This document shows positions 11,529 to 64,000 of a DNA stretch of 64,000 nucleotides, piece by piece; the stretch's first letter is position 1, and each line of letters starts with the position of its first letter. Source of the stretch: Methanotrichaceae archaeon (GTDB lineage: Archaea > Halobacteriota > Methanosarcinia > Methanotrichales > Methanotrichaceae). Below the pieces are notes generated by a model, which did not search any database, was not told the DNA's origin, and was given only the letters and a program-made list of their open reading frames with translations. Both the position numbers and the translations under genes were made by a program. The stretch lies in contig CAVVKN010000021.1 of assembly GCA_963748825.1 (NCBI GenBank), positions 1 to 64,000 of the forward strand, written 5' to 3'.

Positions 11529-11596
11529 CTCTGGTGGTTTACAGAATAAAACCACAGAGTCACAGAGCGCCCAGAGGACGAACGGACGGAGGACTG
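11529..11596. repeat. palindromic CAGAG-type 9-mer intergenic element
   Basis: ctctggtggttt...aaaccacagag hairpin then cacagagtcacagagcgcccagaggacgaacggacggag, the reverse complement of 63468-63510. Confidence 0.7.
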
Positions 11597-57916: not shown

Positions 57917-58590
57917 AGAAGCTCTACTCCCGGGCCCACCCATTTTCTGCGATTGAGTGCCAGCAGTATTCCCGGCCGACGGAGAGCTTCTTGTGCCTCA
58001 TCCTGCTCAAAGCCTGCTACCTGTGCCATAGCGACCAGGTCGCGGGGAGAGTGCAGGTCAAGGTGAGAATTCGCGCTCGCGGTGATAACCGGGTGTAGCT
58101 CGAACTTTCTTACCAGCTGCAGATTGCGCCGAACAGCTTCCAGCCAGCGAGCACGCGGGTTGCCGCGAAGACGCACCAGGGGACTCAGGTCAAAGCCGAT
58201 AGAGACCTGATTTAGCTTAGCCGCCCGCGCTGTGGCAATGCCCAAAGGGCGCCGTACTTCGCAGGGGTGTATGAGAAGGTCCACATTGGGGTCTTCAGAG
58301 GCTACCCGGATTGTCTCCTCTGTCGCGGCCCGAACCACGAGAAATGGATATCTGGCACGTAGAGCCGAGATGCGGCTTTTGAGTGCCTTGCTGCCGGAGG
58401 CGGTCACCTCTACGCCGAAGGCCACTTCAATTCCCTTGATCATCTCGGTTGCCTGGGGCATGAAGATCCTGCCCGGTTCGCAGTTGCAGATGATTATGCC
58501 CTGATAGCCCAGCCCCTTTGCAGTCAGGGCCATGCGGCTGGCAGAGGCTGCACCTTCGGGAAAGGCTCTAAGGCATTCGTAAAAGCTCAT
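57913..58590 (-). CDS. rnp3: ribonuclease P protein component 3 (Rpp30)
   Basis: PHP-like fold, A..LGY, VDLL.HP, S.A.SHLDL.SPRD. Confidence 0.9.
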   Translation of the reverse strand: MSFYECLRAFPEGAASASRMALTAKGLGYQGIIICNCEPGRIFMPQATEMIKGIEVAFGVEVTASGSKALKSRISALRARYPFLVVRAATEETIRVASEDPNVDLLIHPCEVRRPLGIATARAAKLNQVSIGFDLSPLVRLRGNPRARWLEAVRRNLQLVRKFELHPVITASANSHLDLHSPRDLVAMAQVAGFEQDEAQEALRRPGILLALNRRKWVGPGVELL

Positions 58591-59003
58591 ATGAGCTCGC
58601 TGATGATCTTCAAGGCAGACTCGCGCCTGGCTGGATAGGTTTTGACGAGAATTGTTGTGTCCAGGGCGTCCTTGGAGTCGGTCAGGCGCAGCAGCCCTTT
58701 GTAGGCGGCCTGTTTGTCCAGGCGCAGGTGGAAGTGGCTTTCGCCCTCCAACCGGTCCGGGATCTCCCGGCGCAGCCGCTGTAAGTCTTCTGCGGGGAGC
58801 TGCTCGCGAAGAATTTGAAAGAAGGCGGCAGCCTCACGCTTTCGTAGCGCCGCCTCCAGTATTTTTATCTCGTTTCCGAAATGGCCTTCTGCAGTGAGTG
58901 CGGATATCCTGTCCAGAGGAACGAAGACGGCGAGCGCCTCGCGCACGCGGCCCTCGTCTTCCGTTGCTGCCACAAAGGCCCGGAAAGAGACCTTGTCAAT
59001 CAC
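58587..59003 (-). CDS. exosome-associated RNA-binding protein (COG1325-like)
   Basis: ATED..RV, EGHFGN.I, LRLDKQAA. Confidence 0.88.
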   Translation of the reverse strand: MIDKVSFRAFVAATEDEGRVREALAVFVPLDRISALTAEGHFGNEIKILEAALRKREAAAFFQILREQLPAEDLQRLRREIPDRLEGESHFHLRLDKQAAYKGLLRLTDSKDALDTTILVKTYPARRESALKIISELI

Positions 59004-59591
59004 TTACTTTCCTTTTCCGTCGTGGGCTCTGATGCCGGGCCTGGTCTTCTCAGTGCCGAAGCCCTTGTGCCTCTGGCCTCTGCCCTTGCGACCGGCTGAG
59101 GTTTTGCCGCGTACTGCTCTACCGCGATGAACATCATTGCAGACCCAGTTAAGGTTCTTATCATTCATGATGGAGGGAGCGCACGGGTCCACTAAAATGA
59201 CCTCGTAGAACTTCTGCTTGCCGTCCTCTGCCACCCAGTAAGAGTTAAGGACTTCCATGTTGCGGTACCGCCTTCCGGCCCTTTCCTCGGCGATCCTCTG
59301 AATGGACTTGCCCATGCTGATGGCGTTCACGCCCATCTTGCTGGTCTTTCTGTTTCTCTCGTAACGGGACTTCTTGCGGCCACCGCGTCTTACCTTGACA
59401 CGTGCCACGATAATGCCCTGCTTGGCCTTGTAGCCGAGAGCGCGCGCTCTGTCCAGGCGAGTGGGCCTCTCGATCCTCTGCACGGTGCTTTCCTGGCGCC
59501 AGGCCTTGAGCCTTTCCTGCCGCAGTGCGCCCACGTATCCCTCTCGGGGAGAGGACCAGGCATCACTGATATAACCGTAAAAAGACTTCAT
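59004..59591 (-). CDS. rpl15e: 50S ribosomal protein L15e
   Basis: [33 protein letters not shown]. Confidence 0.97.
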
Positions 59592-59605
59592 TTCTTTTCA
59601 CCTTT

Positions 59606-59636
59606 ACCGGTTCGACCAAATGGTCACATTCCGGAA
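59606..59636 (-). promoter_or_regulatory. structured 5' leader of rpl15e (candidate eL15 ribosomal leader)
   Basis: CCGG-aatgt-GACC-attt-GGTC-gaa-CCGG nested hairpin immediately before the GGTGA RBS. Confidence 0.55.
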
Positions 59637-60392
59637 CTAGAGGGGGGAAGAGGTGATAGGAGATAAAGGTTTGGGAGATGGTAACGCATTAGGGTTCGAC
59701 GGGGATCTTAAGGCATTTAGAAATTCGTCTCGATGTTCAAAAATCAATCTATCTAATTCCCAGCCCTCTATTCCCGCTTCTTTTGCAATATTCAAATAGA
59801 ATTTTTCATGATCCGAGTACCTTTTTAGATTCAGCCCCAACTCGCTTGATATGGACCGGATGCGTGAATCGAGCGCTATCTTCTCATGGAAAAAAGGATG
59901 ATAGCAATCCATCATAATATTGTTCGCATACTTCGGACCTATTCCCGGAAAATCGTCCAGGAATTGCGTCATTTCTGCTGCGCATTTTTTATTGAGTAGT
60001 ATTTCATTGGCCTGCTCTAATCCACCCATCTCTTCAATTTTCTCAAAGCATAGCGCAAGCATCGGAGCTTTTTTCTTATAGTAGTGTACCTTTGCATCTT
60101 TCATGATTTGCCGCAGCCTATTCACACGGTCTTCATTGCTGAGGTTCTTCAGTTCAGCATAAGTGATCTGTTGATTTTTATTTTTGTCTGTGACCATATC
60201 TTCGTTTCTGCTTATGCCGCCCCAAGTTGAATAACTCACTAATAACTCATGCCACAAGAAATCAGGTCTCTTGAGTATAGCATGTCCTTTTTCCTTCTTG
60301 CACTCCAATTCACCTTTATATTTGTTTTGAAGATTTTTGGCCATTGCCACTAAAGTCTCAACTTGTTGATCCGTTGCATCAGCAATTGTCAT
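59637..60392 (-). CDS. HhH DNA glycosylase-like protein (OGG2/8-oxoguanine glycosylase-like)
   Basis: FPGIGPKYA HhH with Lys, IALDSRI Asp, C-terminal Y...E..Y..IA.E.GI...ELDRL. Confidence 0.55.
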   Translation of the reverse strand: MTIADATDQQVETLVAMAKNLQNKYKGELECKKEKGHAILKRPDFLWHELLVSYSTWGGISRNEDMVTDKNKNQQITYAELKNLSNEDRVNRLRQIMKDAKVHYYKKKAPMLALCFEKIEEMGGLEQANEILLNKKCAAEMTQFLDDFPGIGPKYANNIMMDCYHPFFHEKIALDSRIRSISSELGLNLKRYSDHEKFYLNIAKEAGIEGWELDRLIFEHRDEFLNALRSPSNPNALPSPKPLSPITSSPL

Positions 60393-60500
60393 GAAGTTCA
60401 CTTCATATCGCAAAGCTTTAAAATGTTTTCATGAATGGCCTTAATGCAATCACTTTAACTTTTCATATCTGTATGGGCAATGCAACAGAGAGGATAAAAA

Positions 60501-61235
60501 ATGAAGGTTGCCATAACTACAGTCGGGTGCAAAGGGCCTGAAGATGAATCCAAAAATGAAGGACGACTAAAAGCCGGAAAACTGGCGATAGCAAAGGCGA
60601 AATCATTGGGTGCTGATATATTAGTACTTCCCGGGGGATTCGTAGTTGGTAATGACTCTAGATCAAGGCAACGAATATCGGATGCACTCATAGATGAAGC
60701 TCGTAGCTTAGAGCTTGCGGTGGTTTTTGGCGTGGACGATCATAGTTGGCCCCAAGCATATGGATATGCCTGGAGTCCAGTTGACAAAATGGCATATAGT
60801 TGGGAACAAAGATCATCTACCAGACACTGGAATAAACGGAGTGAGCAGCCAATTACACTAACCGACAATCAATGGGAAGCCAAACTGAAGAGTTACGATG
60901 ATGTTCGTCTTCTTACGACAGAGGGTGGGGTTGTTGGTGTTCTGCTATGTGGCGAACTTTTCAATGAACGCATAAGGGATGCATTGATAAAAAGGAGGCC
61001 TAAGATTGTTGTTGATCTCATTCATAGAGGCCATGGCTTCAGATCAACGGGCGCAATGAAGAGGCTCTGTCATTATGGCATTACATCGGCTTGTTCTGCA
61101 CACGTACAGAAAGTTGGTGCTATGAAGCGCTGCTATATTCCAGGTAAAGGAAATGATGGAAATGCATCCACCATAGGATTAGATGACAGAATCGAAGGAC
61201 CACCAAGGATAGAACTCAAGCTATTTGAGGTTTGA
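60501..61235 (+). CDS. divergent carbon-nitrogen hydrolase (nitrilase-fold) protein
   Basis: A...GADILVLP and VGVLLCGELF; the usual catalytic Glu after LP is Gly. Confidence 0.55.
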   Translation: MKVAITTVGCKGPEDESKNEGRLKAGKLAIAKAKSLGADILVLPGGFVVGNDSRSRQRISDALIDEARSLELAVVFGVDDHSWPQAYGYAWSPVDKMAYSWEQRSSTRHWNKRSEQPITLTDNQWEAKLKSYDDVRLLTTEGGVVGVLLCGELFNERIRDALIKRRPKIVVDLIHRGHGFRSTGAMKRLCHYGITSACSAHVQKVGAMKRCYIPGKGNDGNASTIGLDDRIEGPPRIELKLFEV

Positions 61236-61240
61236 AGGAA

Positions 61241-61463
61241 GTCTCGAACCTTCGTTAAGGGGTCGTCTCTGTGCGTCCTCCGTGCGCTCTGTGCCTCTGT
61301 GGTGGGATCGTTAGTTGTTCTGTTATAATTATCGGCTAATAGTAATGGCGAGATGCAGCATCTTCCAAAATCCCGCGCCCGGAAAAGCACCCAGCCAAGC
61401 CCACAGCAGGCTACCCACGCGGGCACAAGCGTCCCCGCACGAGCGCACGCATGCGGGGCCGAT
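61241..61463 (+). repeat. repeat A copy 1
   Basis: near-identical to 62218-62443. Confidence 0.92.
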
Positions 61464-61557
61464 CCTTTTCTCGTGTTGCCAAGGTGTGGAATCGCATCTT
61501 TGTACGCGCAGACATCATTGAGTAGTATTATATGCAAATAGGACTAAGTAATTCCTG

Positions 61558-61788
61558 ATGAAACGCCTTTATGACTACACAATAGTGCTCCGTCCTGAAG
61601 ACAACGGCACCTATGCAGCCTACGTCCCTGCTATTCCAGGCTGCCACTCCTGGGGCCAAACACCCGAAGAGGCACAATCTGAGCTGATAAACGTCTTCGA
61701 GATGATCCTGGAAGAGTACAACGAAGAAGGTCGCATGCTTCCGGAAGATATCGATGTGAAGGCCGTTCATGCCTGCCAAAGCTCGTGA
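61558..61788 (+). CDS. hicB: HicB antitoxin
   Basis: YAAYVPAIPGCHSWGQTPEEA. Confidence 0.92.
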   Translation: MKRLYDYTIVLRPEDNGTYAAYVPAIPGCHSWGQTPEEAQSELINVFEMILEEYNEEGRMLPEDIDVKAVHACQSS

Positions 61789-61984
61789 CCTGCAAAAGGT
61801 CGCAAAGAAGCTCGGATTTCATATGGTGAGGCAGAAAGGAAGCCACGCCAGATGGAAGCATCCCGATGGTCGAGCGACAACGATTCCTATCCACGGCAAT
61901 AGCGAAATAGGCAACTGGCTGTTCTACGAAATTCTCAAGCAGTTGGACATAACTGAAGAGGATTTCTTGAAGCATCTCGGATAG
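61769..61984 (+). CDS. hicA: HicA toxin
   Basis: LGFHMVRQKGSHARWKHPDGRATTIPIH. Confidence 0.93.
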   Translation: MPAKARDLQKVAKKLGFHMVRQKGSHARWKHPDGRATTIPIHGNSEIGNWLFYEILKQLDITEEDFLKHLG

Positions 61985-62016
61985 CATCAATTCGAAAGAC
62001 ATATTTCAACCTGGCA

Positions 62017-62212
62017 TCGGGGCCCAACCGGCCTCCTGCCCTCCAGAAAGACCGCCGCATGCATCCCGGCCCGCCTGGCGAGCAGCGCCGCAGTCCCGGA
62101 TGGCCCGGCCCTCGGACAACGGACAAGATGCCCAGCCGGAACCCGGTCAAAGATGCTGCCCACAGGCTGTCGGACACTGCTTCCGGTAGCCCGCAAGGAT
62201 CGTCAAGCTGGA
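62017..62212 (+). repeat. repeat B copy 1
   Basis: aligns with 63143-63340 (ggcgagcagcgccgcagtc, ggtagcccgcaaggatcgtcaagctg). Confidence 0.9.
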
Positions 62213-62217
62213 GAACG

Positions 62218-62443
62218 GTCCCGAACCTTTGTTATAGGGAGTCGTCTCTGTGCGTCCTCCGTGCGCTCTGTGCCTCTGTGGTGGGATCGTTAGTTGTTCT
62301 GTTATAATTATCGGCTAATAGTAATGGCGAGATGCAGCATCTTCCAAATCCCGCGCCCGGAAAAGCACCCAGTCAAGCCCACGGGCGGCTGCCCATGCGG
62401 GCAGCAGCGCCCCCCCCGCACGAGCGCACGCACATGGGCCGAT
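62218..62443 (+). repeat. repeat A copy 2
   Basis: near-identical to 61241-61463. Confidence 0.92.
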
Positions 62444-62512
62444 GTCTACTGCAAAATGGTTCTCCGCCCAAGGGTTAAACACTTAAATAAAAAGAGAGCA
62501 ACATATGTTCCC

Positions 62513-63097
62513 ATGCAAAGGCTAACCGCTTACATCTCCGGCAAGGTCCAGAAGACCGGCTACAGAGCCAGAGTTCTCACCATTGCTCGTGACTTCGGTC
62601 TGAAGGGTTACGTGCAGAACCTGGATGATGGGCGAGTCAAGGTGGTAGCGGAGGGCGAAATCGGTGATCTGGAGAGCTTGCTCGGGGCCTTGGATATCAA
62701 GAACACAATTATCAATGTGGTTGATATCAAGAGCGAGTATTCTTCTGCAACAGGGGATTTTGACAGCTTCGTCAAGGTTGTATCCGGAGGCGAGACGGAT
62801 CAGAGACTCGATGTGGCTGCAGAATTGCTCACGAAGCTTATCGTAGTAAACGAAAAGATATTAGATGAAATCCGGGCGACTCGCCAGGAATTGACGGAGA
62901 CCCATAAAGAATTGACGGCTACCCATCAAGAACTGACGGGGACTCACGAAGACCTTAATGGGGCGATTAATGAGTCGCGTGATGCCATTGTAAACGAGAT
63001 TAGAGAGCTTCGCATTGATTTAAAGGAAAACCTGGAAGGCAGGTTGATAAGAATAGAATCCGACGTCTCCCAAATAAAAGCAAAGATCGCCCTCTAG
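62513..63097 (+). CDS. acylphosphatase domain fused to a coiled-coil tail
   Basis: ISGKVQKTGYR, GYVQNLDDGRV..AEG; 21-bp repeats QELTETH/KELTATH/QELTGTH at 62876-62950. Confidence 0.88.
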   Translation: MQRLTAYISGKVQKTGYRARVLTIARDFGLKGYVQNLDDGRVKVVAEGEIGDLESLLGALDIKNTIINVVDIKSEYSSATGDFDSFVKVVSGGETDQRLDVAAELLTKLIVVNEKILDEIRATRQELTETHKELTATHQELTGTHEDLNGAINESRDAIVNEIRELRIDLKENLEGRLIRIESDVSQIKAKIAL

Positions 63098-63142
63098 TTA
63101 TTTATTTTAGTGATCTGCAGCTTTCCTTAAGCGCCTCCTGAT

Positions 63143-63340
63143 CCCGGCCCGCCCGGCCTCCTTCCCCCCGAAGAGACGGTCGCATGCATCCGGTCCCACC
63201 AGGCGAGCAGCGCCGCAGTCTCGGATGGCCCGGCCCTCGGGCAACGGAACAGAAGCGCAATCGGTATCCCGCCAACGATGCCGCACGAGCGACGGGCTGC
63301 CGGGCTTCTTCTGGTAGCCCGCAAGGATCGTCAAGCTGAA
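63143..63340 (+). repeat. repeat B copy 2
   Basis: aligns with 62017-62212. Confidence 0.9.
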
Positions 63341-63464
63341 GACTGCATCGAAATCAGCTAAAACGTCTTACGATTATTAACCGCAGAGTCGCAGAGTTCG
63401 CAGAGCCGTTCAATCTGCTTATTTGTCAACACTTGAAAAAAAGGTGCTCTGCTTCTGAGCAATA

Positions 63465-63672
63465 GTCGTCTCCGTCCGTTCGTCCTCTGCGTGCTCTGCG
63501 CCTCTGCGGTTCGATCCGCAGTTGTTAGGTTATAATTATATGCTAATAGTAATAGCGAAATGCCACCGCGTCCCAAATCTTGCGCCCGGAAAAACGCCCT
63601 GCCAAGCCCACGGGCAGCTTCCCACGCGGGCACAAGCGCCCCCCGCACGAACGCACGCATGCGAATGGCCTG
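63465..63672 (+). repeat. repeat A copy 3 (more diverged)
   Basis: gttataattat..gctaatagtaat.gcga.atgc, gcgcccggaaaa, gccaagcccac, ccccgcacga.cgcacgcatgc conserved. Confidence 0.88.
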
Positions 63673-63776
63673 CGGCCCGGCAACCGCCCCTGCATCAGCA
63701 TCTTTGCCAGCTTCGATGTGCTTCAAAAAGCAATAGCGTAAGGAATATTTCCATTACCTCTCTATAGAAGCCCCAT

Positions 63777-63995
63777 ATGTTTGCCGAGTATATTGAGGCG
63801 GCTCTAGAAAGGGCTGTTTACAAAACCATCGAAGATGACGGTCCTATCTTTGTTTCAGTACCCGAGCTTCCGGGCGCCTGGGCTGCGGGCAAAACTGTTG
63901 AAGAGGCCTGCAAAGAGCTTATCTCGGTTATTGACGGCTGGATCGCTCTTAGGCTTCGGATGGTACGGTCGATTCCATCAATCGGCGGCCACTGA
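63777..63995 (+). CDS. hicB: HicB-family antitoxin (paralog of 1849-2106)
   Basis: MFAEYIEAALERA...VPELPGAWAAGKTVEEA. Confidence 0.85.
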   Translation: MFAEYIEAALERAVYKTIEDDGPIFVSVPELPGAWAAGKTVEEACKELISVIDGWIALRLRMVRSIPSIGGH

Positions 63996-64000
63996 ACGCC

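Follow-up and report, generated by a model that had tools for sequence, protein, structure and literature searches.

The stretch analysed here comprises bases 1-64000 (64,000 nucleotides (nt), referred to as the window) of the 98.6-kb contig CAVVKN010000021.1 (C21) of a Methanotrichaceae archaeon whose genome, of 2.88 Mb, consists of 25 contigs, and the end of this window carries small unrelated genes, several of them toxin-antitoxin (TA) genes, set between conserved repeats. This arrangement is best read as one end of a Methanothrix-specific tandem array of units of ~390 nt, in which small self-contained cassettes, mostly type II TA loci with their own promoters, lie between partial units. 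Regarding its mode of change, the explanation preferred, at a probability of roughly 55%, is an integrase-independent cassette array that is shuffled by homologous recombination inside the repeats. In the following, the source genome is designated G000 and its contigs are given C-numbers, while other G-numbers denote the genomes with which it was compared.

Two gapless repeat families were detected in the array region, one of 169 nt with three copies (61268, 62247 and 63475; 76-79% identical, at spacings of 979 and 1228 bp) and one of 144 nt with two copies (62016 and 63141; 80% identical). BLASTN aligned the copies of the first repeat, A, at 92% identity over 216 nt (A1 and A2) and 80% over 189 nt (A1 and A3) and those of the second, B, at 79.5% over 195 nt (B1 and B2), while nhmmer profiles made from the copies matched A at 61241-61469, 62218-62449 and 63455-63675 (E 1e-69 to 1e-76) and B at 62007-62216 and 63132-63345 (E 1e-65 to 1e-67). 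The repeat families, the BLASTN alignments and the profile matches all bear out the positions assigned to these five repeats in an earlier reading of the letters of this DNA (the sequence-only reading), and the two motifs described in it are present as well, the core GTTATAATTAT-NN-GCTAATAGTAAT being common to A1, A2 and A3 and the 26-mer GGTAGCCCGCAAGGATCGTCAAGCTG at the end of B being the same in B1 and B2. The tract described as CAGAG does exist in A, but on the + strand it reads CTCTG, the complement of CAGAG. The suggestion that the array runs off the end of the window was mistaken: no further A or B occurs after 63675 on the contig, and there is no B3.

In relatives the head of A joins B directly with no cargo between them, and A and B are therefore the 5' and 3' parts of one non-coding unit of ~390 nt, for which a model of 393 positions was used. 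The head of the unit is made up of a fourfold CTCTGYG tract and an AT-rich TATA-like core (TATAATTAT..CTAATAGTAAT), which is the most strongly conserved block of the unit, and the body, of ~270 nt, is GC-rich and has the terminus CCGGTAGCNCGCAAGGATCG..AAGCTGGAG. Mean G+C is 63% in the units, 47.5% in the cargo and 50.8% in the genome. The 22 loci counted contain 14 full-length units free of cargo, and every one of their 131 body-containing matches (131/131) agrees in orientation with its own locus; the next head follows the end of a unit within 60 nt in 35 of 58 cases. Outside the head core, two GC-rich motifs and the 3' 26-mer, all of them conserved from species to species, the sequence of the unit drifts. 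Open reading frames (ORFs) that span A and B are, by inspection, alike only where the conserved DNA dictates it and then diverge in frame by indels, and a reading of the repeat as coding sequence was rejected on these grounds.

Comparison of the orthologous locus, which is framed by a CN-hydrolase-like gene on one side of the array and by a conserved 80-amino-acid ORF (orf80) and an SPFH protein on the other, revealed that species differ by whole repeat-bounded units and in the order of their cassettes. Genome G000 has hicBA, the gene of an acylphosphatase (AcP) and a UPF0150 gene, in that order, while G050 has UPF0150, hicBA, AcP and an empty unit, and G074 has UPF0150 and AcP followed by 1.4 kb of other DNA. 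In G015, AcP is followed by UPF0150/HicA on one contig with exactly the hicBA period missing, and further cassettes are present on a second contig; G024 has one empty unit and a partial head with no cargo, and G061 has no units. A scan of metagenomes for additional orthologous loci yielded a single contig of 1.4 kb, which did not enter this comparison. The comparison of orthologous loci for precise gain or loss of units, proposed as a check in the sequence-only reading, thus has a positive outcome in G000, G050, G015, G024 and G061.

Two more arrays are present in G000, on C18 (58.9-62.6 kb) and C25 (29.3-34.7 kb), with cargo of HicAB, PIN/Phd and MNT/HepT families (Pfam) and a RelE/ParE-like pair recognized by eye only. 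The same cargo recurs in other arrays and genomes beside different neighbours, its orientation to the units being kept in all but two weak cases (~72%) among the alignments listed, and recurring cargo is 90-100% identical in 40-nt windows inside the cassette, with identity dropping at the edges. In the C18 and C25 arrays, several cassettes have counterparts of 93-97% identity in G012, G013, G016 and G006, while housekeeping stretches of G000 are 90-91% identical to those of G012, G013 and G016 (two stretches) and 86% identical to that of G006 (one stretch matched). Cassettes that are closer than housekeeping DNA point, at the level of sequence, either to conversion or to interspecies exchange. 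Between G000 and G050, hicBA is conspicuous at the C21 locus, with an identity of 92-100% per 100-nt window as compared with 89-95% for the neighbouring gene. A deletion is visible at C25:33478-33886 (L003 9478-9886), where hicA is truncated at the fusion of two cassettes and the intervening unit and the 3' end of hicA are gone; the intact arrangement is present in G006.

Chimeric repeats were found at the orthologous locus of G050. The A repeat before UPF0150 has a head resembling that of A1 and A2 (90-91% identity, compared with 64-75% to A3) and a tail resembling that of A3 (79-88%, compared with 47-54% to A1). The A repeat before hicBA has a diverged head (72-75%) and a tail of the A1 type (93-100%), and the B repeat after hicBA begins as B1 (100%), lacks a variable segment of 49 nt, has a B2-like middle (85% vs 73%) and continues as B1-like sequence. 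In the chimeras between G000 and G050 the parts of the repeats on the cargo side follow the cargo and the far parts follow the position, and crossovers must therefore have occurred inside the repeats and in more than one place. Chimeras of this kind are what homologous recombination or gene conversion from one repeat to another leaves behind, and a fixed recombination site at the junction of B and A would not give the chimeras observed. The unit of exchange had been taken to be A, cargo and B together; this has to be revised, since the G000/G050 crossovers lie inside A and inside B and the basic repeat is head plus body, which can be empty.

The break points of the cargo, given in unit coordinates, range from 116 to 390 on the left and from 3 to 253 on the right and differ by cargo family, and of the 44 segments with a right flank beginning in the body, 36 have flanks that overlap by 17-278 nt in these coordinates. 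Because the break points are spread across the unit and the flanks overlap, there is no single insertion point. This spread bears on the possibility that an unlinked site-specific recombinase acts in trans, as IntI does with clusters of attC sites lacking an integron integrase (CALINs), and binds the CTCTGYG tract, the 26-mer at the unit end or the motifs CCCGGAAAA / CAGGCCCGACCGGCCTCC. Such an enzyme would fit the short motifs that stay nearly invariant across species in a unit that otherwise drifts, the common orientation of all units, the short distance from unit end to next head noted above and the tract itself, which as a fourfold iterated 9-mer resembles a multi-site protein-binding array. 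There is also precedent in the text of Ghaly et al. (2022; PMC9668308), according to which most of the archaeal integrons identified are attC clusters without an integrase, with excision and capture by integrases in trans possible. It is nevertheless an unlikely explanation, as the break points are scattered and depend on the cargo family, the crossover between G050 and G000 lies in the middle of A, away from the junction of B and A, and B is a mosaic of several patches. Neither attC boxes nor a hairpin were found, and a search with PF00589 across the genome, in which the IntI-specific model was not run, found no tyrosine recombinase beyond two weak matches on other contigs (C20 and C5), one of which barely exceeds the family cut-off while the other falls short of it. 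The genes flanking the three arrays of G000 are unrelated genes, and so are 10 array-adjacent or large cargo ORFs of relatives, of which 6 have no Pfam match and the sole transposase-like one is a truncated TnpB.

The array is likewise hard to reconcile with an integron array that has lost its integrase and has unusually long attC sites. Integron attC sites are far shorter than ~390 nt. On both strands of 61001-64000 there are 0 pairs of R''/R' boxes (RYYYAAC...GTTRRRY) 35-140 nt apart, with 0.4 expected from 100 shuffles, and the B1-A2 spacer (528 nt, + strand) folds at -83.2 kcal/mol, no better than its shuffles (-85.6 kcal/mol; z +0.49), and forms no single-strand hairpin. Integron cassettes are co-oriented and mostly promoterless, whereas the cargo here occurs on both strands, with TATA-like boxes before cargos 1 and 2, and no IntI was found in the search described above. 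A tandem array that is delimited by repeats and rich in TA genes does resemble a CALIN, and the text of Ghaly et al. (2022; PMC9668308) reports integrons in Archaea and places TA at 10.5% of functionally predicted cassette proteins, so that archaeal integrons with TA cassettes are on record; the name Methanothrix has 0 occurrences in that text, its supplements aside. Taken together, a CALIN origin is barely credible, and the absence of attC boxes, of a hairpin and of a nearby tyrosine recombinase agrees with the original view of a repeat-delimited cassette array that is not an integron.

The head of the unit also occurs by itself. Alone, it corresponds to one arm and the centre of a small palindromic element that is scattered in intergenic DNA throughout the genome and consists of a fourfold CTCTGYG tract, GGTGG, ~40 nt with GGTTATAACC, CCACC and a fourfold CRCAGAG tract. 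The genome contains 75 such tracts, compared with 0 in shuffles, and among pairs less than 150 nt apart 14 are convergent and 10 divergent; copies of the element in the window lie at 11544-11592 (- strand) and 63379-63405. Of 65 matches of the unit profile in the genome, 46 stop by unit position 160, and 4 of those 46 are the A parts of arrays. A had been regarded as a repeat peculiar to arrays, which has to be narrowed: its head is found at dozens of unrelated intergenic sites, and only the GC-rich body is array-specific. The palindromic elements may be similar to miniature inverted-repeat transposable elements (MITEs) or to repetitive extragenic palindromic (REP) sequences.

Given this relationship, the spacer from B to A could itself be viewed as a MITE-like non-autonomous transposon that inserts beside TA genes with the CTCTGYG tract as its terminal repeat, and the frequent occurrence of the 75 tracts as closely spaced inverted pairs, together with the inverted tract between B2 and A3 (27 nt, 89% complementary to 63485-63511), would be in keeping with it. 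The body, however, is not dispersed, as G000 has it in three arrays and as three single copies and nowhere else, and a common orientation of 131/131 units would not result from random transposition. The unit lacks terminal inverted repeats of its own (none bounding it was detected in the repeat search of the window), no transposase was found in the cargo, and the differences between orthologous loci span entire repeat periods, with their junctions lying within repeats, which makes a transposon of this type very unlikely.

Regarding distribution, all six places of the unit body in G000 adjoin TA genes. A search that used the B1-A2 spacer matched 20 of 24 further genomes of the genus (some of these matches being to the head only) and 0 of 16 genomes of other genera, and one that used an empty unit (E<=1e-8) matched 36 of 58 further genomes of the genus and, in 15 other genera of the family, 0 of 46. 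Units were present in 9 of 121 loci found by pattern matching, all 9 from Methanothrix/Methanotrichaceae, and most of the other loci are chance bacterial matches. No units were detected in three viral contigs that match the 18-mer pattern, and the B1-A2 spacer had no match in plasmid and phage collections.

The features of the array in the window are listed in Table 1. Pfam agrees with the identities that had been proposed for the cargo, namely hicBA, an acylphosphatase with coiled coil and a hicB. Adjacent small genes of known families, as in type II TA loci, are represented by the HicB_lk and HicA pair and the UPF0150/HicB-like protein, and also by array cargos elsewhere, while the acylphosphatase falls outside known TA families. 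The acylphosphatase cassette is also present at the orthologous locus of G015, G050, G074, G004, G067 and G010. Its gene contains three 21-nt (7-amino-acid) tandem repeats at 62875-62937, and the contig of an environmental relative has one additional 21-nt copy after 62935, which shows that the number of tandem repeats varies.

Table 1. Features of the cassette array at the end of the window (all positions on contig C21).
Feature	Description	Position	Strand	Evidence
Left boundary gene	244 amino acids, weakly CN-hydrolase-like	60501..61235	+	Pfam CN_hydrolase E 0.008, under curated cut-off
A1	Unit head (CTCTGTG tract 61267-61297; TATA-like core 61322-61345) and cargo-specific GC-rich tail	61241..61469	+	nhmmer E 5.5e-76; unit positions 21-154
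Cargo 1a	HicB-like antitoxin	61558..61788	+	Pfam HicB_lk_antitox E 6e-9
Cargo 1b	HicA toxin, overlapping hicB	61769..61984	+	Pfam HicA_toxin E 1e-19
B1	3' part of unit, 26-mer at end	62005..62218	+	nhmmer E 4e-65; unit positions 169-384
A2	Unit head and tail, abutting B1	62218..62449	+	nhmmer E 3.6e-76; 92% identical to A1
Cargo 2	Acylphosphatase (AcP) domain and coiled coil	62513..63097	+	Pfam Acylphosphatase E 1e-17
B2	3' part of unit	63127..63351	+	nhmmer E 4e-67; unit positions 164-390
B2-A3 insert	Inverted tract 63379-63405, family of the dispersed palindromic element	63352..63454	-	Inverted repeat, tract scan
A3	Unit head of second subtype (CTCTGCG tract) and UPF0150-linked tail	63449..63675	+	nhmmer E 9.7e-69
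Cargo 3	Solo UPF0150/HicB-like antitoxin, last cassette, without HicA or trailing B	63777..63995	+	Pfam UPF0150 E 6e-23

Cargo segments (n=58) have a median length of 776 bp, and 49 of the 58 are no longer than 1 kb. The cargo segments of the loci of 20 relatives yielded 126 non-redundant ORFs of at least 62 amino acids, a set in which real and spurious frames are mixed, and the Pfam matches among them include HicA (8), HicB/UPF0150 (9), HepT (4), PIN (3), DUF4258 (3), MqsA (3), ParE (2), TumE (2) and others. Nearly all of these matches are to TA families, the rest being one acylphosphatase and a few weak matches of coiled-coil type, and neither a transposase nor an integrase was detected by Pfam among the 126. 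According to the Pfam tallies, the 71 ORFs scanned on the array strand and the 55 on the other strand contain TA families in similar numbers, and the unit head is therefore not a promoter shared by the cargo. Similarly, TATA-like boxes were recognized by inspection ~21-35 nt before the start codons of both the first and the second cargo, for which a TATA of their own had been claimed.

These results bear directly on the idea that the unit serves TA loci mainly in regulation or transcription, with the head as an archaeal promoter or protein-binding site and the body as a leader, trailer or insulator between TA operons, and that turnover is a by-product of repetition. The TATA-like nature of the best-conserved block and the confinement of the body to the neighbourhood of TA genes speak in its favour. 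RNA evidence consists of contigs from four metatranscriptome runs, which give no strand, start or level and are uninformative about the parts that they do not cover; they cover hicBA, and in a relative one contig of 1444 nt spans the A tail, AcP, B, A and UPF0150. The repeats may thus be transcribed, with which this contig is compatible, although it is a weak indication, given that DNA carry-over is possible. As the main role of the unit, regulation is improbable: the first two cargos have TATA-like boxes of their own, the balance of TA families on the two strands is at odds with a common promoter, empty units have nothing to regulate and no conserved RNA fold was found. A regulatory role is compatible with the recombination model.

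The RNA fold was of interest in its own right, as a composite repeat or non-coding RNA platform had been offered as one interpretation of the repeats. No Rfam match was obtained in 58000-64000 at E<=1, the consensus fold of nine units is weak (about -26 kcal/mol on each strand), and RNAalifold with 20 full units (array strand) gave -7.18 kcal/mol, a covariation term of -0.12 and compensatory change in 2 of 18 pairs. With no Rfam match, no covariation and no conserved fold in either the 9-unit or the 20-unit set, the structured RNA interpretation was abandoned as unsupported.

The preferred explanation, an array shuffled by homologous recombination inside its repeats, would have the following steps. 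The co-oriented units would serve as portable homology arms, with general homologous recombination as the engine, and cassettes would be lost, duplicated, reordered and replaced when units recombine or undergo gene conversion with others in the same array, in a different array or on DNA that comes from another species of Methanothrix. Looping out between direct repeats would turn a cassette into a circle of cargo and one unit's worth of repeat, and this circle could re-enter at any unit of the same orientation, a process that would require no dedicated integrase. Rare illegitimate events may place new cargo between unit parts, and each cargo family would have its own break points because of such captures. 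Strict co-orientation of the units is expected under this mechanism since recombination from repeat to repeat predicts it, and addictive TA cargo may favour the persistence of the array.

The anatomy of the arrays, their distribution in the genus, the bias of the cargo, the differences in whole units at the orthologous locus and the chimeric repeats are seen in the sequences, and with them the shuffling, while the engine, the circles and the manner of first capture are inferred. Several observations weigh against this explanation. No recombination event, circle or junction read was observed directly; the RNA-library contigs reveal other arrangements of the array in relatives but no circles. 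With an identity of only ~70-80% among themselves, the units may be too diverged for homologous recombination to work efficiently, and exchange would therefore need short conserved patches. The conserved motifs of the unit suggest a sequence-specific function, for example protein binding or a promoter, that goes beyond pure homology arms. Among 16 recurring cargo families, by reading of the alignments, both break points fall within ~30 nt in ~6, those on one side in ~7 and those on neither side in ~3, and the finding that alignments end inside shared repeat motifs is partly expected by construction. The identity of cargo above that of housekeeping DNA could be due to gene conversion or selection as an alternative to transfer, and with no more than 86.7% identity between G000 and G050 in its collinear block, the C21 locus looks vertically inherited. 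A more far-reaching version, a 'homology integron' in which the portable 390-nt repeat would capture, stack, reorder and pass any TA or defence cassette between species of the genus, with a protein partner that acts through the head and 3' motifs to target or stimulate recombination at the units, is doubtful; if true, it would represent a new class of archaeal platform for the exchange of cassettes.

Regarding the surroundings of the arrays, 7 of 58 further genomes of the genus have an orthologue of the CN-hydrolase-like gene (72-91% amino acid identity) with units downstream; the gene is probably a pseudogene in G024 and G004 because of in-frame stop codons (G024:C72 and G004:C80; one TGA and one TAA). 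The genes flanking arrays vary from array to array and include an ammonium transporter, a pyridoxal phosphate (PLP) enzyme, an AAA ATPase, a SIR2-like protein and one truncated TnpB. The C18 array is directly adjoined by a defence-like protein of 508 amino acids with a SIR2_2 domain (C18:62885-64411, - strand), and two large ORFs of 725 and 467 amino acids lie on its other side. At C22:12231-14149 a partial unit lies beside a two-gene pair that is MazF/PemK-like by eye and an ORF of 399 amino acids that is IS200/IS605 TnpB-like by eye. Some 2 kb past the C21 array there is an ORF of 1648 amino acids (C21:66437-71383) with a membrane-like N-terminus and, by eye, TPR-like repeats, and the same flank encodes a second protein that by eye resembles the acylphosphatase-coiled-coil cargo (L001 14230-14706).

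If the proposed mechanism is correct, the arrays would offer a simple route for the spread and build-up of TA and defence genes in Methanothrix, a globally important acetate-using methanogen, and the units would be natural landing pads for genetics in a genus that is poor in tools. The arrays also explain why Methanothrix assemblies are fragmented, several array-bearing contigs ending within an array, and why spurious GC-rich ORFs are annotated across the repeats. No published description of these arrays was found in the full-text literature, supplements and most subscription journals being outside its scope. To our knowledge, nearly all gene-cassette arrays on record are integrons and depend on IntI and attC, and what appears from sequence comparison to be new here is the logic of a cassette array without the parts of an integron.

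Among known systems, REP sequences and bacterial interspersed mosaic elements (BIMEs), Correia elements, also known as Neisseria miniature insertion sequences (NEMIS), and MITEs are dispersed intergenic repeats that carry promoters and seed rearrangements. They resemble the units in being non-coding with AT-rich cores, and the head of the unit is shared with a dispersed palindromic element; the full unit, in contrast, is not dispersed, has no bounding inverted repeats and is strictly co-oriented beside TA genes. In the minimal mobile elements of Neisseria, alternative cassettes are swapped at a fixed locus by homologous recombination through conserved flanks of housekeeping genes, and the swapping of cassettes through homologous flanks without a dedicated recombinase is common to both systems, whereas here the flank is a portable non-coding repeat and the cassettes form tandem multi-cassette arrays at several loci. 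Integrons and CALINs, including the superintegrons with their Vibrio cholerae repeats (VCR), have in common with the Methanothrix arrays the unrelated small genes separated by one co-oriented conserved repeat, the prominence of TA cassettes and the differences among related genomes in whole cassettes and their order. The arrays described here differ from them in lacking IntI, attC boxes and a hairpin and would reach an integron-like outcome, the blockwise gain, loss and reordering of unrelated small genes, with no dedicated enzyme visible and by way of a much longer repeat (~390 nt) composed of an AT-rich head and a GC-rich body, with cargo that lies on either strand under its own promoter and with crossovers at various points inside the repeat.

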